From the IMG/VR virus record IMGVR_UViG_2671180676_000005: a DNA stretch of 11,391 nucleotides; one strand, 5' to 3'. Position 1 is the first letter of the stretch. Each line of letters opens with the position of its first letter. Position numbers and translations under genes: made by a program. The notes under the pieces are model-generated. The model ran no database searches and was not told the DNA's origin. It was given only the letters and a program-made list of their open reading frames with translations. Positions 41 to 11,391 of this stretch are shown here, piece by piece. The stretch is from a virus (lineage: Duplodnaviria > Heunggongvirae > Uroviricota > Caudoviricetes).

Positions 41-196
41 TTACTCCTCAGGTTCGTAAGCTGTGAAGACAGCGACCTCCGTCTGGCCGGTTCGGATTCG
101 TACCTCGCAGAGGTCTTTCCTCGTTACCAGTGCCGTCACTATGACGGTTAAACAGATGACGATCAGGGCGATTAACATCGCCTTTTGCTGCTTCAT
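41..196 (-). CDS. hokD: Hok/Gef-family type I membrane toxin (51 aa), HokD/RelF
   Basis: Not in the ORF track (<60 aa). Manual minus-strand translation gives MKQQKAMLIALIVICLTVIVTALVTRKDLCEVRIRTGQTEVAVFTAYEPEE, which matches my recall of K-12 HokD (RelF). Lies directly downstream of relE, as in the relBEF operon. Confidence 0.9.
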   Translation of the reverse strand: MKQQKAMLIALIVICLTVIVTALVTRKDLCEVRIRTGQTEVAVFTAYEPEE

Positions 197-267
197 AGCC
201 TGCTTCTCCTGTCAACGCAAAGCAGAAGTGTCACCTTCGGTGCGAAACAGAGATGTCATGCTTTGGT

Positions 268-555
268 TCAGAGAATGCGTTTGACCGCCTCGCTATATAC
301 TTCCGAGCGTTCTCTTTTCCCAACAGAAATCACGAAAACGACAACTTTCTCGTCTATAACCTGGTATACAAGGCGATAGCCTGAAGACCGGAGCTTAATC
401 TTGTAACAATCAGGCATACCACGGAGCTTGTTTGCTTCAATCCGGGGTGACTCAAGTACTTCAACCAGCTTCTTTTTCAACTGTTCACGTACCGTCGAGC
501 CCAGCTTTCGCCATTCCTTTAGTGCCCGCTCGTCAAAATCCAGAAAATACGCCAT
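268..555 (-). CDS. relE: RelE mRNA interferase toxin (95 aa)
   Basis: ORF track 95-aa protein MAYFLDFDERALKEWRKLG... is near-identical to recalled K-12 RelE (one E/D difference). Start ATG shares one base with the relB stop (TGATG). Confidence 0.95.
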   Translation of the reverse strand: MAYFLDFDERALKEWRKLGSTVREQLKKKLVEVLESPRIEANKLRGMPDCYKIKLRSSGYRLVYQVIDEKVVVFVISVGKRERSEVYSEAVKRIL

Positions 556-794
556 CAGAGTTCATCCAGCGTCACACGTACTGGCTTAGGATTACGAAGC
601 CGTTCTTTCACTATCTCCACAAGTTCAGCATCTTCATCACTCAGGAGTGTCTGTTTGAACGGCAAGCGTTCATTGTCAGCGATATACTCGAGCATGAGAC
701 GAAGCGCTTCAGAAGGAGTTACACCCATTTTTTCAAGCGCGGCGTAAGAACGCGCTTTAAGTTCATCGTCAATACGCAGGTTAATGCTACCCAT
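555..794 (-). CDS. relB: RelB antitoxin (79 aa)
   Basis: ORF track 79-aa protein MGSINLRIDDELKARSYAALEKMGVTPSEALRL... matches recalled RelB. AGGTG Shine-Dalgarno (SD) lies upstream. Confidence 0.95.
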   Translation of the reverse strand: MGSINLRIDDELKARSYAALEKMGVTPSEALRLMLEYIADNERLPFKQTLLSDEDAELVEIVKERLRNPKPVRVTLDEL

Positions 795-805
795 GTCTTA
801 CACCT

Positions 806-831
806 CTTGTAATTACAAATGTCATTACAAG
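806..831. promoter_or_regulatory. relO operator: TTGTAAT-type repeats including the 12-bp palindrome TTGTAATTACAA
   Basis: Sequence cttgtaattacaaatgtcattacaag sits 12-37 bp upstream of the relB start codon; it matches the known RelB/RelE operator motif. The promoter itself was not mapped. Confidence 0.7.
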
Positions 832-1124
832 TATCGCACTACAACATGCTTAGGGCAAGTCACGAAGGAAGTCAGAAAGTAGTCGTAAGAACGGTGATCA
901 CTGTCCGCTTTGTGCCAGGAGCAGCCATTGCTAAGTCCATCCTGTATTGTGCAGGTCAGCTCGTTTTTAAAGAGTCCGGCCATCATCTTACTGGTACAGA
1001 CACCATATACTTTGTGACGGTCAGGCTACATATGCACAACTCAACTTATTCATCTATTTTTTGCTTTAGCATGTCAGTGTTGCTTTCTCGTCGGCGGGTG
1101 AGCGGTGACCTGACCTGTCGATAA
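819..1124 (+). CDS. Hypothetical ORF in the position of K-12 ydfV (101 aa); doubtful as a real protein
   Basis: ORF of 101 aa between relB and flxA, where K-12 annotates ydfV. It overlaps the relBE operator region and its sequence is not protein-like; no SD was checked. Confidence 0.25.
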   Translation: MSLQVSHYNMLRASHEGSQKVVVRTVITVRFVPGAAIAKSILYCAGQLVFKESGHHLTGTDTIYFVTVRLHMHNSTYSSIFCFSMSVLLSRRRVSGDLTCR

Positions 1125-1276
1125 AGGAACGTAACACGTTTTATGCAACACCCGCATGCGGCAGAAAATTATTGCCGAACGTTTACCCCTGTCAACAAGC
1201 TTTACTTTCTGAGGCGCGCCAGCCCGCGAGGAAAACAATCTGAACATCAAACAATTAATGACACAAGAAATACGAT

Positions 1277-1303
1277 TAAAGATTTTTTTGTGCATGCCGA
1301 TAG
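1277..1303 (+). promoter_or_regulatory. Sigma-28 (FliA) promoter of flxA
   Basis: TAAAGATT (1277-1284), 11-nt spacer, GCCGATAG (1296-1303), against the class 3 flagellar consensus TAAAGTTT-N11-GCCGATAA. AAAAGGAG SD follows at 1313-1320. Confidence 0.75.
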
Positions 1304-1326
1304 TGCTTTTTTAAAAGGAGAAATCT

Positions 1327-1659
1327 ATGTCTGTCACAATTCAGGGAAATACCTCAACCGTTATTTCAAACAACTCCGCCCCGGAAGGAACATCAGAAAT
1401 AGCCAAAATCACAAGACAAATTCAGGTGCTGACTGAAAAGCTTGGGAAAATCTCATCGGAAGAGGGGATGACGACACAGCAGAAAAAAGAAATGGCTGCA
1501 TTGGTACAGAAGCAAATTGAAAGCCTCTGGGCTCAACTGGAGCAGTTGTTAAGGCAGCAGGCAGAGAAAAAGAATGAAGACGCGACAGTTCAGCCTGATA
1601 AAAAAGAAGAGAAAAAAGACGATACAAATACCGCTGGCACCATTGATATTTACGTCTAA
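1327..1659 (+). CDS. flxA: FlxA, FliA-regulated protein of unknown function (110 aa)
   Basis: ORF track 110-aa protein MSVTIQGNTSTVISNNSAPEG... matches recalled K-12 FlxA. Preceded by the sigma-28 promoter and a strong SD. Confidence 0.9.
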   Translation: MSVTIQGNTSTVISNNSAPEGTSEIAKITRQIQVLTEKLGKISSEEGMTTQQKKEMAALVQKQIESLWAQLEQLLRQQAEKKNEDATVQPDKKEEKKDDTNTAGTIDIYV

Positions 1660-1673
1660 GTGACAGCCGTATT

Positions 1674-1697
1674 GTGGCCCTCATCGGGCCACTTTTC
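1674..1697 (+). terminator. Rho-independent terminator of flxA
   Basis: GTGGCCC-tcatc-GGGCCAC perfect 7-bp GC-rich stem followed by TTTT, 15 nt after the flxA stop. Confidence 0.65.
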
Positions 1698-2095
1698 GCC
1701 ATCAGCCTTTTCTTTAAAGACATATTATCTTTGTATCATTTCTGATAGTTAACATTACAAGATATAAGTAATGGACGCACTCCCAATTAGTCTATTTAAA
1801 TCGCCACGAGTTTAACTGACAACCCATGATCAATTATGAATTGCAACTATTTCTGTAGTCACTTTTGTGGGGACAGTCCACAAAACTGCCAACTTCCGCT
1901 TCTTGCTCTTAGCGGACATTAGCATAGGCTATTTACCATAACGCCTCATTACGCGCACCGCCCAGACTGACTCAGCGCGTTTCTGGCATATCCCCGGTAA
2001 AACAAGTAACAAACCACCCGAAAATGAACACCAGAAACGCGACTTAAGAATCTACCCTATGAATGGATATGCACTCAACCGAATCGATCTTGGTT

Positions 2096-3409
2096 TCAAT
2101 CTTTTTTATCGGGATCAGGCTTCTTTTTAGGTAACTTCGGGGGCTTAACTTGCTGATGACTTTGCGTTCGGCGCGTAAGCCAGGGATGGTCAGCTTTAGG
2201 TTTAACATAGTATTTTGAGCGTAAATCAATACGGGCATTATCCACTCGTTCATGGACACTCTTTTCATCATCCAGTGGTATAGGCTCCGGGCCATCAACA
2301 TACTTTTCCCAGCCCAGCGCTTTCCCGTCATACAGAACGTTAATTTCACCGTCAAAGTTCTCGCATACAGTAACAACCGAATGCCTAAGTCGATATCCCC
2401 GGCCCTCACTGCGTACCTGAAACGCACTGCTTTTGTACTGGAAAGTGAGATTTTTAGACAGAACGCGCTTCGCCTGTAGGCTGAAGATATAACCCAGTTC
2501 CTCTTCAGAATGGTGCACATCAAGATGAGCATTATCAGTAGTACGAGGCGACGTAGCGAACCGGTTGTTATAGGCTTCAATAAAGGTCGGCAACCATGCA
2601 TTTGCTGTTTCAATATCACTGATATTCTGAAGCCGCATTTCTTTGACCAGCCTGTCCTGTAGTGTCTGATTGGCGCGCTCTACCCGCCCTTTTGCCTGCG
2701 GGCTGTTGGCATGGATTGGCTCGATGCCCAGTGTCTTTATCGCACGAGTGAACTGGGTCAGCTCACCTTCCCGCTCTGGGTTATTTACCCTGAATATACT
2801 GTGTCTATCAGAGTAGAGAGCGAGCGGTACGCCATGATCATTAAGGTAACCCCGGAGGGTTTCCATGTAAGCCCGGGTTGTTTCAGCAGGCACAAAACGC
2901 AACGCCATCAACGCACTGGTGGCATCATCAATGAAAACGATCAGTGTACATCTGGGGCCTCGATTTTCAAACCAGTCATGAGGTGAGCCATCAATCTGGA
3001 TCAGTTCACCGTAAGATGGTCGTCGCATGCGGCGTTGATATATACGGGCAATTTTACGACGGCGTTCACGCCATAACCCCTCTTCTATCATCCACTTTCT
3101 GAGAGTTTCAACGGATAAAGATAAACCGTGTATCTCGCGCAATTTTTCGCACGCAAACGTAGGTCCAAAATCAGCGTAACGGCCTTTGAGGAGTGAAATT
3201 ACTGTTGCTCTGAATTCAGTAGAAAAGGAATTATTAGGACGCTTTCCACGTCGGTGGGAAACCAGACCAGAAGGCCCTTCATTTCTATACCGTTGCACCA
3301 GACGTTTAACCTGCCGAATAGAAATGCCAATGCGTGCCGCAGCTTGTTCCTGAATAATCTGAAGTCGGTGGAGTTCCTTATGACTCATCGTAACAGTCTC
3401 TTTGATCAT
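2096..3409 (-). CDS. DDE (integrase-fold) transposase-like protein, 437 aa; N-terminal HTH; family not resolved (IS481-like or ISNCY/IS1202-like)
   Basis: ORF track 437-aa protein with an N-terminal HTH-like segment (ISIRQVKRLVQRY) and an integrase-core signature (KGRVERANQTLQDRL). Element boundaries are not defined. K-12 annotates an integrase fragment (intK/ydfW) at this position. Confidence 0.75.
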   Translation of the reverse strand: MIKETVTMSHKELHRLQIIQEQAAARIGISIRQVKRLVQRYRNEGPSGLVSHRRGKRPNNSFSTEFRATVISLLKGRYADFGPTFACEKLREIHGLSLSVETLRKWMIEEGLWRERRRKIARIYQRRMRRPSYGELIQIDGSPHDWFENRGPRCTLIVFIDDATSALMALRFVPAETTRAYMETLRGYLNDHGVPLALYSDRHSIFRVNNPEREGELTQFTRAIKTLGIEPIHANSPQAKGRVERANQTLQDRLVKEMRLQNISDIETANAWLPTFIEAYNNRFATSPRTTDNAHLDVHHSEEELGYIFSLQAKRVLSKNLTFQYKSSAFQVRSEGRGYRLRHSVVTVCENFDGEINVLYDGKALGWEKYVDGPEPIPLDDEKSVHERVDNARIDLRSKYYVKPKADHPWLTRRTQSHQQVKPPKLPKKKPDPDKKD

Positions 3410-3743
3410 GAAAAATCCCCCAGAGAATTGTCTGGGGACATTTTAGAATGGTTCAAAGGGGACATTACAGCTTGGTGTTAACAATAGCCTGCTTCTCCGT
3501 GCCTTTCGGCACGTAAGAGGCTAACCTACATGTGTCTAGCATGAAATTGGCCTCAGATTAATGTTAAGCGTCTTGCAGGACGCGTAATGTTAACTGGGGC
3601 TTTTCTCTATCTGCCGTTGGTGTCCATGCCCGAGGCAGATAGCCTCAAGCACCCGCAGTCATTCTACTTAACTAAGATTTCCCCGCAAACCGTTTTTGTC
3701 CAGCACAGTAAATATCCAACTAAACCAATGGAGTTCGCTGTAT

Positions 3744-3923
3744 TTACCGCCAGTATTCAATGCACATGACCGCCATGAACACCCCTAAAAAAAGGGCATT
3801 TATATATCCAAATATTAATATCAAAACATCAACTTTTTCCATATACCTTGCTGTGAAGATGATGGGCATACATGATGCGAACAACCAGAACGCAACAAAC
3901 AAAAACTGCAATGCGTTTTTCAT
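3744..3923 (-). CDS. Small hydrophobic two-TM peptide (59 aa), function unknown
   Basis: The ORF track 72-aa frame contains an internal ATG with a consensus AGGAGG SD 6 nt upstream (taggaggaataATG). Product MKNALQFLFVAFWLFASCMPIIFTARYMEKVDVLILIFGYINALFLGVFMAVMCIEYWR has two hydrophobic stretches. Confidence 0.5.
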   Translation of the reverse strand: MKNALQFLFVAFWLFASCMPIIFTARYMEKVDVLILIFGYINALFLGVFMAVMCIEYWR

Positions 3924-4107
3924 TATTCCTCCTACAATCAATGTGCAATTACATTTAAACACACCTCAATTTGGCCGGACATATAAATATCTAAACCAGA
4001 AAAAATCACTTACATAGCGTTACAAACTCTTTAGTCTAAAGGTTCATCGTAAAACATTCCCCATACTTATCAGTCCGTTCCGCGCCAGGTAGCTCATTGC
4101 CTTATCT

Positions 4108-4137
4108 GGCAACCTGTAATCAGGTTTCCGCTTTTTC
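4108..4137 (+). terminator. Candidate weak intrinsic terminator, or regulatory hairpin
   Basis: AACCTG-taat-CAGGTT stem-loop (4111-4126) followed by tccgcTTTTT. No obvious plus-strand gene upstream. Confidence 0.25.
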
Positions 4138-4947
4138 AGTTGGCTGGTCGTTTAACCGACATAGTTAATCCATTAATCTAGTTGCCGGATGTTGGTGGAT
4201 TTTCGCGTTTTAGTTGTTCATAAAAGTGCACAGCTTTAACCAGTTCTTCTGATGTAACTGGGACTGGTGAGGCAGTGAATAAGGCCTGAATTTGATAGTT
4301 CGGCCTGTCGTTACAATCCTCTTTTTTCGGTACATATTTCCAGTCACCAGACCACTACTTCCCCTGAAAGTCCGTAACGCCTTTTTTCACGTAGCGATAT
4401 CGCCATGCCACTGGTTTTGCTTGCCCCGCCGTTTCATGCCCTTCCTGATAATTAATCTCGCTCATTCATCGCCCCACTCATCACAATATGCTTCGACCGG
4501 AGTTTTTCCCGCTTCATAGTCATCACGCTAGGATTCGACATCAGCAGCACTTCCACCGCGTAACTCACCATAGTCCATTAATAGTTCATCCCGCTCTTCA
4601 AAACTGATGTTATATTTAGCTGAACAAAAATCAGCCACTTTGTTCTTCCTCATCGTCTTTTATTTCGTGGTATGAGTAATTGCAGTAGTTAAAGAAAATT
4701 TCTTATGCTCCGTCATGAATTTCCTCAGGTGTTGCGTCATCGTCCACTTCGAATACATCCTCAAAATCTCCACCAGCTATTCCCGTTTCAATAATAATTT
4801 TGAACTTTCGCATTTCACTACCGCCCTTTCGGGCGGCCTCCTGATGTTCTGAGGGTGCAGAAATCCATCCGGTTAAGTATTAAATTTTATTTACAGAACT
4901 GAATTTAATTATTCAGATATACGTATCTGTAGCCTTACGAATCTACT

Positions 4948-4997
4948 CACTGGATGCCTCTTTCATAAAAATAATCCAGTGGGTTTTATCGTTTTTT
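4948..4997 (+). terminator. Candidate hairpin plus T-tract (terminator-like)
   Basis: CACTGGAT (4948-4955) and ATCCAGTG (4974-4981) form an 8-bp stem with an 18-nt loop, followed by gguuuuaucguuuuuu. The large loop makes a terminator call uncertain. Confidence 0.25.
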
Positions 4998-5075
4998 CCC
5001 TGTTCGTTGACAGATAACAGGTTTTCTGTCTGTCAGTGCCAGAATCTGGCTTACCGGTATTTGCGTTTCATTCCA

Positions 5076-5432
5076 TTAAAAAATCAGAACGCCGTGCGGC
5101 CTCAACACCCGAAAGGCTTCTTTAAATCTCTGTCGCGAATCATCACGCCAGGCATCTTTATTCAGCCGTCCATATTTCTTTCCCATCCAGGCGTTATCAC
5201 CAACACTCTCAAGATGCGGAGGGTCTAATACAACCATCGAAAAAGATGCGTCTGCAAATGATAATGCACGAAAATCTGCGATAATGTCAGGGCTGATAAT
5301 CAAGCGTCTCCCATTGCGTAATGTGTATCCTTCTTTTCTGATATCGCTGAATATCGCCCGTTCGTCAGACTTATCGAACCAGAACATGCGGCTGCCACAG
5401 CACATATCAAGAATGGTTGCCGGTGCACTCAC
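5076..5432 (-). CDS. DNA methyltransferase-like protein (SAM-binding motif, then DPPH motif IV), apparently C-terminally truncated; possible pseudogene
   Basis: 118-aa ORF with LDMCCGSR (motif I-like) and VLDPPHL (motif IV-like). GTG start overlaps the upstream stop as GTGA. The in-frame TAA is followed by 31 more sense codons in the same frame. Confidence 0.6.
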   Translation of the reverse strand: MSAPATILDMCCGSRMFWFDKSDERAIFSDIRKEGYTLRNGRRLIISPDIIADFRALSFADASFSMVVLDPPHLESVGDNAWMGKKYGRLNKDAWRDDSRQRFKEAFRVLRPHGVLIF

Positions 5433-5851
5433 TGCGCCACGTCCTGAAAATTACCCTGATAGAAAGCCAGTATGCGCTGCATAACTTCGCTCTTCCGGCA
5501 CTCGCGACAGATTATGTTTAGGCGACTGTCGTAGCGACGTATTTCTCCGTCAGGTGATGACCAGATAAGGTCCGGATCAACCACAGCAGGTTTCTTCACC
5601 TTTGCCCTCGAGAGTTTTTTGCGGGCGTTTTGCCAGTCCTTACGCGCCTGTTCAGAGGGGAATAACCCGTAGCCGGAGTTGTATACATCGCCACTGGCTA
5701 CCAGCTCTCTGGCAAGAACGCTCATCAGATATCTAGTCGCACCTGTTTTAGCTTCCAGTTGCCGTAACGTCTCACGGCCGCTCTGGCGCACGAGTTCCAC
5801 CACCTGCCATTTAATTTTTTCCCGCTCTTCTTGTGTAAAAACTTTTGCCAC
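5429..5851 (-). CDS. Hypothetical protein (140 aa), basic, with a CxxC near the C-terminus; in the position of a lambdoid P-like or accessory replication gene
   Basis: ORF track 140 aa. GTG start with a strong AAGGGGGA SD 4-5 nt upstream. Translationally coupled to the downstream methyltransferase-like gene. Confidence 0.55.
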   Translation of the reverse strand: MAKVFTQEEREKIKWQVVELVRQSGRETLRQLEAKTGATRYLMSVLARELVASGDVYNSGYGLFPSEQARKDWQNARKKLSRAKVKKPAVVDPDLIWSSPDGEIRRYDSRLNIICRECRKSEVMQRILAFYQGNFQDVAQ

Positions 5852-6911: not shown

Positions 6912-7359
6912 TTGCTTTTTCTATAAGTTCGTCAGTTTCACGATCCACTACGGCAGGATCAGCAAAAAGCAGTCCGGACTCCACCACATCGCCATATTCT
7001 TTGTTTAACCCGGCGATCATGCACGTGATGCTTTTTCCGTCAGTAATTTCACGATACAACCTGAAATCATTAATCCGGATAGCCTCCATAATTGCAGGCA
7101 CTAGCGCCGTGAACTTTTCACGCTTATCCCTGGTGTCGATAGCCTTCCAGCGTTCAAATATCTTCACTCGATTAACGCCAAGCGCTCGCTGATCAATCGC
7201 GCCACCTTCATATGTGACACGCTGAACATCGATGTTCGGGCGCTCTTTCAAAGCCCAGAATGCTTCAGTGATTAATATCGTCGCCTGCTCCTGTGTCATT
7301 CCTGGTCGACATATCCAGGCATCCAGAGCCTCACGAGCCTGTTCAGGAGTGATTTTCAT
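6838..7359 (-). CDS. Hypothetical protein (173 aa) directly downstream of the cro-like gene dicC; positional analogue of YdaT/YdfX-type proteins
   Basis: ORF track 173 aa, overlapping the dicC stop by 17 nt. K-12 has the pseudogene ydfX at this position. Homology is not verified. Confidence 0.5.
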   Translation of the reverse strand: MKITPEQAREALDAWICRPGMTQEQATILITEAFWALKERPNIDVQRVTYEGGAIDQRALGVNRVKIFERWKAIDTRDKREKFTALVPAIMEAIRINDFRLYREITDGKSITCMIAGLNKEYGDVVESGLLFADPAVVDRETDELIEKAIAFKLAYRQQYQQKAGWNYEPSFC

Positions 7360-7573
7360 TGTTCAACCGCCCCGCCCGCTTCGTCTTACGATATTCATCA
7401 TAAACTTTGGGATCATACTGAAGCTCCCCGCCAGATGCCTCCTGTAGACGCATCGCGCGACCTTCGGGAACTAAATCCCCTTTCCAGCTATAAAGCGAAG
7501 CCAAACGAATACCTGCTGCTTGTGCAAGTTTTGTTTTTGAACCGAAATACAAAAGAGCGTCAGTTTTAAGCAT
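7343..7573 (-). CDS. dicC: DicC, Cro-like HTH regulator (76 aa)
   Basis: 76-aa ORF MLKTDALLYFGSKTKLAQAAGIRLASLYSW... divergent from dicA; length and sequence match recalled DicC. Sigma-70-like promoter on the minus strand: TTGACT (7629-7634), 17 bp, TATCTT (7606-7611). Confidence 0.9.
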   Translation of the reverse strand: MLKTDALLYFGSKTKLAQAAGIRLASLYSWKGDLVPEGRAMRLQEASGGELQYDPKVYDEYRKTKRAGRLNNENHS

Positions 7574-7656: not shown

Positions 7657-8064
7657 ATGGAAACAAAAAATTTAACTATCGGCGAACGCATCAGGTATCG
7701 TCGGAAAAACCTCAAACACACCCAAAGGTCTCTTGCTAAAGCCCTGAAAATCTCCCATGTGTCTGTATCACAATGGGAACGGGGTGATAGTGAACCTACA
7801 GGGAAGAACCTTTTTGCCCTCAGCAAAGTATTGCAATGCTCACCAACATGGATTCTATTTGGCGATGAAGACAAGCAACCAACACCACCTGTTGAGAAGC
7901 CAGTTGCCTTATCCCCCAAAGAACTAGAGCTCCTTGAGCTGTTTAATGCACTGCCAGAATCAGAACAGGATACCCAGCTCGCCGAAATGCGAGCTCGAGT
8001 AAAAAACTTCAATAAACTCTTTGAAGAATTACTAAAAGCCCGTCAGCGGACAAATAAAAGATAA
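7657..8064 (+). CDS. dicA: DicA, repressor of the division inhibitor dicB (P22 C2-like HTH, 135 aa)
   Basis: 135-aa ORF METKNLTIGERIRYRRKNLKHTQRSLAKALKISHVSVSQWERG... matches recalled DicA. Confidence 0.95.
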   Translation: METKNLTIGERIRYRRKNLKHTQRSLAKALKISHVSVSQWERGDSEPTGKNLFALSKVLQCSPTWILFGDEDKQPTPPVEKPVALSPKELELLELFNALPESEQDTQLAEMRARVKNFNKLFEELLKARQRTNKR

Positions 8065-9104: not shown

Positions 9105-9162
9105 TTTCTGGTGACGTTTGGCGGTATCAGTTTTACTCCGTGACTGCTCTGCCGCCCTTTTT
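9105..9162 (+). ncRNA. dicF: DicF small regulatory RNA (antisense inhibitor of ftsZ translation)
   Basis: tttctggtgacgtttggcggtatcagttttactccgtgactgctctgccgccctttt matches recalled DicF; ends in GGCGG...CCGCC plus a U-tract. Lies between ydfC and dicB. The 5' end is approximate. Confidence 0.8.
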
Positions 9163-9331
9163 AAAGTGAATTTTGTGATGTGGTGAATGCGGCTGAGCGC
9201 ACGCGGAACAGTTAAAACCAAAAACAGTGTTATGGGTGGATTCTCTGTATCCGGCGTTAATTGTTAACTGGTTAACGTCACCTGGAGGCACCAGGCACTG
9301 CATCACAAAATTCATTGTTGAGGACGCGATA

Positions 9332-11391
<2,060 letters not shown>

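Follow-up and report, generated by a model that had tools for sequence, protein, structure and literature searches.

Probable remains of five accessory genes in a hairpin-dense early stretch of a Qin-type prophage of E. coli

The window, by which we mean the whole 11,391-nucleotide stretch of DNA analysed here, is a Qin-type defective lambdoid prophage of E. coli, recognizable by its markers dicA/dicC, DicF, relBE-hokD and flxA. The records of E. coli W and of phage PhiR42_1 annotate dicA, dicC, a ydaT-like gene, an O-like gene, DUF977, the methyltransferase, relBE, hokD and flxA. The landmarks below were placed from record annotation and the list of open reading frames (ORFs), apart from the hok/sok leader, which is an Rfam match.

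7657-8064, plus strand: dicA
7343-7573, minus strand: dicC
after dicC, minus strand: a YdaT-like gene, then an O-like gene
5429-5851, minus strand: DUF977 gene
5076-5432, minus strand: methyltransferase ORF as annotated
3483-3654 (sok): hok/sok leader
beyond the hok/sok leader: ISNCY transposase, flxA, ydfV, relBE and hokD

The early-right operon is on the minus strand, and positions 3962-5075 are its accessory stretch. Lying downstream of the replication genes and upstream of hok/sok, this interval would be equivalent to the nin/ea regions of lambda. Comparison of the interval and its flanks with relatives yields the following features.

4958-5432, minus strand: class I SAM-dependent DNA methyltransferase pseudogene (tblastn and DNA alignment)
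5076-5078, minus strand: premature ochre codon in the methyltransferase, K119 to TAA (alignment to O111)
4998-5000, minus strand: +1 frameshift in the methyltransferase tail, CCC against CC in O111 (DNA alignment and frame change)
4909-4950, minus strand: putative 42-nt stump of an ead/Ea22-like gene (alignments)
4814-4908, minus strand: conserved intergenic linker and 5' UTR (comparison of relatives)
4631-4813, minus strand: DUF7167 (PF23768, phrog_1997) pseudogene, K37 to ochre at 4705-4703
4462-4638, minus strand: pseudogene of a 58-aa acidic protein (phrog_519), start ATG to GTG, W37 to amber at 4530-4528
4044-4465, minus strand: pseudogene of a 171-aa phrog_660 protein (PVAWRYRY... type; alignment to the intact EC931 gene, L090 2583-3098)
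3963-4043: short intergenic spacer between the last relic and a 59-aa ORF, ~97% conserved in comparison with L003, L089 and L090
3744-3923, minus strand: unannotated 59-aa hydrophobic ORF adjoining the spacer

The ancestral methyltransferase coding sequence is about 157 aa long, and the copy in the window is cut to 118 aa. In tblastn alignments, residues 1-146 of the intact O111 protein (L006 2646-3119) match 5432-4995 with 84% identity and a stop at codon 119, and residues 145-157 match 4999-4961 in another frame. The family match is to phrog_954 (1.7e-86), and the C-terminal KWNETQ...GKxDKTHWI is conserved in homologues from Klebsiella, Pectobacterium and Erwinia phages. The window copy lacks the full-length methyltransferase domain (phrog_954; Methyltransf_11/25): its N-terminal 118 aa are intact and homologous, and the C-terminal 39 aa are lost, to the ochre codon and then to the frameshift. 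Judged from these relatives, positions 4958-5075, which the first-pass annotation had treated as non-coding, are the apparently dead 3' third of the methyltransferase gene. PGAP describes the methyltransferase of strain NCCP 15734 as 'frameshifted; internal stop', and the truncated 118-aa ORF of E. coli W stands as intact in its annotation. Because PGAP annotates the fragment as an intact protein, some residual methyltransferase activity may persist.

Next to the methyltransferase, at 4909-4950, alignments point to a remnant of only 42 nt of an ead/Ea22-like gene. The ribosome-binding site and GTG start (4950-4948) are kept, as are the last codons, ...GAA TAA (4914-4909), and the interior is deleted. 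In phage Stx2c_EH0430, GGAGGCGGCCAGTGAGCAAGATTGAC directly 3' of the methyltransferase opens an Ea22-like ORF (VSKIDYQAL...). The Ea22-like gp17 of pPE4 ends ...CCTGAATAA, immediately 5' of the same linker that follows the stump here, and CTGAATAA in the window matches the last codons of that pPE4 gene.

The DUF7167 relic is 88-91% identical to intact 57-60-aa homologues over their full length. An intact homologue matches the Pfam HMM with E = 7.9e-15 and 55.1 bits (cut-off 24.4), which establishes its family membership; in the window copy, the frame of ~57-60 codons is interrupted by TAA at codon 37. PGAP calls it a 'DUF7167 family protein, internal stop'. The first-pass annotation had noticed that the frame of the minus-strand ORF at 4703-4813 continues in sense codons past its stop, and that continuation is the DUF7167 tail. 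For the 58-aa relic, tblastn aligns pPE4 gp19 and 640R1 gp45 across 58 aa at 83% identity, an in-frame stop interrupting the match; an intact homologue matches phrog_519 at 4.5e-23, and the frame of the window copy is not intact. The two short acidic minus-strand ORFs on which the first-pass annotation had remarked, 4703-4813 and 4528-4653, are both present, but the 'MRK-K' start that they share is coincidental. The upstream ATG of 4528-4653 ('MRKNK') is a lineage-specific substitution inside the DUF7167 tail, and DNA alignment places the ancestral start of the 58-aa gene at the ATG at 4638, which is GTG in the window.

Lesions are most numerous in the phrog_660 relic. Codon 37 (4357-4355) is amber, 90 nt are missing between short repeats near 4190/4191 and another 4 nt at 4146/4147, and there are more stop codons besides. 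Intact homologues match the family at 6e-43 to 4.4e-49. PGAP labels the relic 'frameshifted; internal stop'. Its lesions are common to L089 and in part to L003, and they also occur in EC17CM6 and phage 640R1, where the DUF7167 and 58-aa genes stay intact, which indicates that the phrog_660 gene decayed first. The DUF7167, 58-aa and phrog_660 genes of functional relatives have overlaps of a few nucleotides, an arrangement seen in translationally coupled genes. In the E. coli W record that we examined, PGAP flags the DUF7167 and phrog_660 relics as pseudogenes; the methyltransferase tail, the 58-aa gene and the Ea22-like stump have no pseudogene annotation there.

At the other end of the interval, no record examined annotates a feature over the spacer at 3963-4043. 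A plus-strand ORF at 3760-4017, which appears as 'hornerin' in some phage records, was rejected as a gene because it is truncated in L089 and L090. The minus-strand 59-aa ORF opposite it is intact in all four sequences compared.

Positions 3962-5075 match 2,578 E. coli records. Identity reaches 99% or more in 500, and some 1,400 genomes form a clade at 90-95%. Among the records matched are E. coli W, ATCC 8739 and PhiR42_1, the phage record from ECOR13. The copies in E. coli W and PhiR42_1 differ from the window by one or two substitutions and carry the same lesions; the NCCP 15734 copy has 15 changes, yet its lesions are also the same. Intact gene sets are found in vB_EcoS-640R1, pPE4, ArgO145, EC17CM6 and EC931. 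The Qin prophage of K-12 does not contain the interval, its match to the window stopping inside a transposase remnant, and the relics are confined to non-K-12 strains.

On the far side of the hok/sok leader, positions 210-3483 are a 3.3-kb ISEsa1-type transposon that carries relE, relB, ydfV and flxA together with an intact 437-aa transposase, which is ISNCY/IS1202-like and of the ISEsa1 family. Its ends are imperfect 28-bp terminal inverted repeats (21 of 28 positions matching), and it is flanked by an exact 15-bp direct repeat, ATAGCCTGCTTCTCC. The transposon interrupts the hok/sok locus at the hok ribosome-binding site; in EC931 and EC17CM6 this locus is contiguous. The same element, at 99.8% identity, is present on IncI and IncF plasmids of Salmonella and Enterobacter; every copy there has entered a hok-family gene of its own, at the Shine-Dalgarno (SD) sequence and start codon, and the 14-15-bp duplication differs from case to case. 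The hok ribosome-binding site is the insertion point in each of the three copies examined. That relBE has integrated into hokD is on record (PMC6379469), and in a survey of the IS1202 family ISEsa1 measures 1,609 bp and has no target duplication that could be detected (PMC10132070). A passenger-carrying, hok-targeting form of an ISEsa1-type element may be undescribed. This relBE toxin-antitoxin pair rides on a mobile element, an observation of more interest than the interval itself.

The first-pass annotation described the interval as packed with inverted repeats, and all of the repeats and ORFs that it listed are present at the positions that it gave. Its five repeats are as follows.

4111-4137: AACCTG-taat-CAGGTT plus a T-run, confirmed in the sequence
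4899-4916: CTGAAT-N6-ATTCAG, confirmed in the sequence
4914-4929: CAGATA-N4-TATCTG, confirmed in the sequence
4948-4981 (arms): CACTGGAT-N18-ATCCAGTG plus a T-tract, extending to 11 nt at 91%
4999-5021: CCTGTT-N11-AACAGG around TTGACA, confirmed in the sequence

We counted repeats with perfect 6-nt arms and loops of 3-20 nt, a long stem being counted several times, and compared the counts with 200 dinucleotide shuffles. Positions 3962-5075 hold 18 such repeats against 4.3 ± 2.3 in the shuffles, none of which reaches 18. Thirteen of the 18 lie in 4814-5075, where 1.0 ± 1.3 are expected from shuffling. The excess is thus beyond chance and concentrated in 4814-5075, though it is not unique to the interval, since a control window between dicA and ydfC is equally rich (15 against 4.9). 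The strongest hairpin, CCGCCC-GAAA-GGGCGG on the minus strand at 4821-4836, had been overlooked. The accompanying statement that neither strand has a protein-like ORF of more than 45 codons needs a caveat: a 75-codon plus-strand ORF exists at 4292-4519, but it is not protein-like and runs antisense to two of the gene relics.

The arms of the repeats fall on conserved codons (THWI, PVIxQRTG and KPDYRL). The ancestral methyltransferase coding sequence contains the repeats at 4948-5021 or has them at its end. CCTGTT-N11-AACAGG with its TTGACA hexamer encodes PVICQRTG of the methyltransferase. One arm of the 4948-4981 repeat encodes the methyltransferase THWI, and the adjacent T-tract is the complement of GKNDK; the second arm belongs to GGAGGCATCCAGTGAG, whose counterpart in Stx2c_EH0430 is the ribosome-binding site and GTG start of the ead/Ea22-like gene. 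The repeat at 4111-4137, with its T-run, encodes KKRKPDYRL of the phrog_660 relic. On these alignments, most of the inverted repeats appear to be coding sequence or gene-boundary debris, and the T-runs beside them are the complements of lysine codons. As a unit, the repeats would do nothing.

Decayed genes were one of two alternatives put forward in the first-pass annotation, and here they go beyond what was proposed: five consecutive gene relics fill 4044-5075. Alignment to intact relatives, suggested at the time as a way to find longer ancestral ORFs, reveals each stop and each frameshift at the level of the residue. Very probably, then, the interval consists of five dead genes and a linker, produced by ordinary prophage decay, and is not a regulatory RNA locus. 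Functional relatives are fully coding here, with a methyltransferase, an ead/Ea22-like gene, a linker of ~95 nt, DUF7167 (60 aa), and genes for an acidic protein of 58 aa and a phrog_660 protein of 171 aa. In the lineage of the window each gene would have been inactivated. We count four premature stops, with others besides in the last relic, two frameshifts, a deletion of 90 nt and the loss of nearly all of one gene. What is left would read as fragments of short acidic ORFs and 'non-coding' DNA, a neutral relic inherited vertically with the prophage. The interruptions make it probable that the relics have lost their function.

Within 4044-5075, only the linker at 4814-4908 is non-coding in intact relatives, and since it is conserved and portable, this small part of the interval may keep a function. 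On the minus strand the linker opens with stops in three frames, CTGAATAATTAA; the Ea22-like stump supplies the first 8 nt of this block, CTGAATAA, as its final codons and stop, so that the block straddles 4908/4909. There follow a weak hairpin (GAKGG-N9-CCCTC), the SD sequence AGGAGG (4842-4837), the strong CCGCCC-GAAA-GGGCGG hairpin (4836-4821), 7 nt, and the ATG at 4813, so that this hairpin sits between the SD and the start codon. The same linker of ~75-100 nt is found 5' of DUF7167 in the window, L003 and L004, 5' of an unrelated gene of 138/135 aa in L006 and L096, and 5' of DUF4014 in L095. The gap after the last paired base of the hairpin is 7 nt for DUF7167, 6 nt for DUF4014 and 11 nt for the 138/135-aa gene.

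One way to read this arrangement is as a functional, portable cassette in which three-frame stops are followed by an SD that is bridged to the AUG by a GNRA-capped GC hairpin. Folding could then cut the distance from SD to AUG from 23 nt to ~7 nt, making a 'split' ribosome-binding site. This reading is compatible with gene decay. It gains from the occurrence of the sequence 5' of three unrelated genes, from the survival of the hairpin in the ArgO145 type, in which other sequence stands in for the rest of the linker, and from the dominance of the hairpin in both the minimum-energy and the centroid fold. For covariation we used 80 viral-contig loci that encode DUF7167, all with identical protein and near-identical upstream sequence, of which 79 were informative. 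The linker is kept in 79 loci, where the only variants in the hairpin stem are one-sided C-to-U changes that retain G-U pairs; no true covariation is seen among these loci, whose near-identity leaves the comparison no statistical power. Conservation could reflect recent common descent alone, and the fold z-score of the 66-nt linker segment is just -1.83. In L012 and L045, moreover, the 5' arm and AGGAGG are replaced and the gene is still kept. Because both are replaced in these two locus types, an equally good reading is that GGGCGGU in the 3' arm could be the real SD, sequestered by the hairpin. The linker could also be a homology patch for modular recombination.

Background for both ideas exists in other phages. 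T4 genes 38 and 25 have 'split', or structure-bridged, SD sites, and the window resembles them in having AGGAGG 23 nt from the AUG with a stable 6-7-bp hairpin between, for an effective spacing of ~7 nt; it differs in that the SD-like GGGCGGU inside the hairpin offers an alternative, and the likeness would be one of analogy only. HK620 and related lambdoid phages carry conserved 'linker' or boundary sequences at module junctions. Like these, the window has a non-coding block of ~75-100 nt that is common to unrelated gene neighbourhoods, with mosaic breakpoints at the linker edges and at start codons; by analogy, a role in recombination may be suggested. On balance, we consider it unlikely that the linker is a functional portable cassette of the split-SD kind, and somewhat less likely still that it is a portable expression cassette reused by recombination for unrelated early genes, with its hairpin controlling translation.

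The regulatory or small-RNA alternative of the first-pass annotation fares considerably worse. On this view the hairpins in 4814-5075 would give the early-right operon an sRNA, an attenuator or a block of terminators resembling tR2 of the nin region. The nin terminators of lambda lie between the replication genes and the Q-like region, and the position of the interval between such genes would suit this reading, as would the excess of repeats in 4814-5075 and fold z-scores of -2.4 to -4.05. The Rfam 15 search was run with gathering scores over the whole window and with E <= 10 over 3700-5300. No Rfam family was found, prophage sRNA families included: over 3700-5300 there is no match below E = 1.6, and the sole match, Yfr17, scores 18.6 bits against a gathering score of 50. 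The search itself works, since it detects sok and DicF elsewhere in the window. Promoter-like sites are not enriched (4 against 4.3 expected), and there are none in 4814-5075 on either strand. Terminator-like sites number 3 against 0.9 ± 1.0 expected, which is not a significant enrichment; the two inside the interval (4111-4126 and 4619-4635) are plus-strand sites, on the strand opposite to the operon, and the only one on the minus strand, 5110-5087, lies in the methyltransferase coding sequence just before the premature stop. The hairpin at 4945-4984 has an 18-nt loop and a U-tract on the plus strand only; the hairpins with T-tracts are antisense to the operon, and their T-tracts correspond to lysine codons of the relics.

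Comparison with homologues also counts against this alternative, in the way that the first-pass annotation had named for its refutation. In relatives, ordinary intact genes contain within their coding sequences the repeats at 4111-4137 and 4999-5021, as well as one of the two arms at 4948-4981; repeats at 4999-5035 fall within conserved methyltransferase codons. The second arm at 4948-4981 is where the deleted Ea22-like gene has its ribosome-binding site and start codon. Methyltransferase homologues of Salmonella, Klebsiella, Pectobacterium and Erwinia lack the 3' arm of the repeat at 4948-4981. Two observations stay mildly unexplained: the plus-strand fold of 4940-5040 (z = -4.05), and a complementary double change in the 7-bp repeat at 5008-5035, which is TGACAGA/TCTGTCA in the window and TGACCGA/TCGGTCA in O111. 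The double change could reflect a maintained structure, but template switching at a quasi-palindrome in a dead gene seems to us no less likely than selection. Taken together, we judge it very unlikely that the hairpins form a regulatory RNA or terminator block.

It is still more improbable, to the point of being nearly negligible, that the truncated 36-aa and 41-aa ORFs are functional micro-proteins or that their stops are read through: the first stop falls at exactly codon 37 in all three small relics, an odd coincidence, and 36-aa DUF7167 fragments are called as proteins in the database (P0059 and P0065), but the three stops are different codons in unrelated contexts and of different age (that of phrog_660 is common to L089 and L003, and the other two are not), the phrog_660 relic has deletions and further stops as well, the 'MRKNK' start of the second ORF is a lineage-specific accident, and no recoding signal is evident. 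With codons, contexts and ages all differing, we rejected the three codon-37 stops as a recoding signal.

The ancestral genes may have encoded small acidic early accessory or host-takeover proteins. The suggestion in the first-pass annotation that they were of an acidic DNA-mimic or anti-restriction type stays a conjecture, since PDB sequence searches and fold searches gave no significant match. High acidity, ~20 Asp/Glu in 60 residues, is the only trait that the relics have in common with DNA mimics of the Ocr and ArdA type, from which they differ in that no relationship of sequence or fold was found. A phmmer search of the PDB returned nothing below E = 0.15, and PDB sequence searches with the three small proteins gave no meaningful match. 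An AF2 model of DUF7167 (pLDDT 77) has a beta-beta-alpha-beta fold, for which Foldseek found no match at E <= 0.001 in the PDB and BFVD. The best geometric match is T7 Gp2, a small acidic inhibitor of RNA polymerase; we did not adopt this likeness, which is geometric only (TM 0.62/0.70 but E = 1.4). Homologues of DUF7167 with at least 62% identity come only from E. coli (prophages), which makes their alignment shallow. Our literature search returned no paper mentioning DUF7167.

These relics fit two well-known groups of elements. The cryptic lambdoid prophages of E. coli (Qin, Rac and DLP12) share the Qin-type setting of the window and have decayed likewise by nonsense mutations, frameshifts, deletions and IS insertions that are fixed across hundreds of strains; they differ in that K-12 Qin has lost the interval. 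Among the lambdoid nin/ea accessory genes and the phrog_954 methyltransferases, intact members are 74-91% identical to the relics, and the order of genes and the overlapping start/stop architecture are as in 640R1, pPE4, ArgO145 and EC931; the difference is that every copy in the window is interrupted. The mechanism of decay is ordinary and already partly recorded by PGAP.

What the analysis offers is first a negative result: a stretch of prophage early DNA that looks non-coding and is dense in hairpins need not be regulatory. Intact relatives account for 4044-5075 base by base, and the short remainder, 3963-4043, is a spacer that carries no annotation. The comparison also corrects the annotation of this prophage, in which the 118-aa 'methyltransferase' is the truncated remnant of a gene, and two pseudogenes, those of the 58-aa gene and the Ea22-like stump, have gone unannotated.

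Three consecutive small pseudogenes in this prophage, a DUF7167 gene, a 58-aa acidic gene (phrog_519) and a 171-aa phrog_660 gene, all (3/3) have their first premature stop at codon 37:

4703-4705, TAA
4528-4530, TAG
4355-4357, TAG

The sequence contexts of these stops are unrelated to one another, and the stop in the phrog_660 pseudogene predates the other two. The shared position is most likely a coincidence, with a chance of ~1e-3, a figure that is a crude post-hoc estimate and not a calculated value.

The 118-aa methyltransferase fragment (5076-5432) is annotated by PGAP in E. coli W as an intact protein (WP_001310834.1). Since its homologues are 156-160 aa long and have a conserved C-terminus, the fragment is probably an unflagged pseudogene. 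The dead tail of the gene carries a 7-bp inverted repeat, TGACAGA/TCTGTCA, at 5008-5035, whereas the repeat in the E. coli O111 and Stx2c phage versions reads TGACCGA/TCGGTCA. This complementary double substitution could reflect either maintenance of the structure or quasi-palindrome template switching.

The following reading frame is unannotated:

3744-3923, minus strand, very hydrophobic 59-aa ORF, sequence MKNALQFLFVAFWLF...

This ORF is preceded by a strong Shine-Dalgarno sequence (AGGAGG, 3933-3928), is uninterrupted in all four of the versions compared and finds no match in Pfam, PHROG or NCBIfam. The block that holds it (3655-4043) is ~97% conserved, as compared to ~90% for the flanking genes. 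An overlapping plus-strand ORF, to which some phage records give the name 'hornerin', is cut short in two relatives' loci (L089, and L090 of EC931) and is probably spurious.

At the other end of the window, an IS21-type insertion follows the DicF small RNA gene and occupies the place that dicB and ydfD hold in E. coli W. The features of this region (9106-11305) are:

9106-9157, DicF sRNA (Rfam, 76.7 bits)
9628-10410, istB-like ORF
10475-11305, istA-like ORF, including a masked run of N

The relE, relB, ydfV and flxA genes, together with a transposase gene, form a single 3,274-bp transposon at 210-3483. Its imperfect 28-bp terminal inverted repeats match at 21 of 28 positions, and it is flanked by a 15-bp target duplication:

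195-3498, relBE transposon including direct repeats
195-209 and 3484-3498, direct repeats

The transposase, of the ISEsa1 family (IS1202-like/ISNCY), is encoded by an intact 437-aa gene at 2096-3409. In E. coli W, 'ydfW' is annotated across the final 150 nt of this gene, adjoining an ISNCY transposase pseudogene. In K-12, the match to the element stops at its position 2071, a point within the transposase gene where ydfW is annotated; 'intK' of K-12 is presumably the rest of the same gene.

ISEsa1 itself is given as 1.6 kb, without a target duplication (PMC10132070), and integration of relBE into hokD has been recorded with no mechanism given (PMC6379469). In the window, the transposon has inserted at the Shine-Dalgarno sequence and start codon of hokD, parting sok/mok (3483-3654) from hokD (41-196), and the 'relBEF' operon is the product of this insertion. 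IncI and IncF plasmids (L097, L098) carry the same element at 99.8% identity. There it occupies the corresponding position in two further hok-family genes, and its target duplications of 14-15 bp differ from copy to copy, which suggests that the relBE transposon prefers hok ribosome-binding sites as targets.
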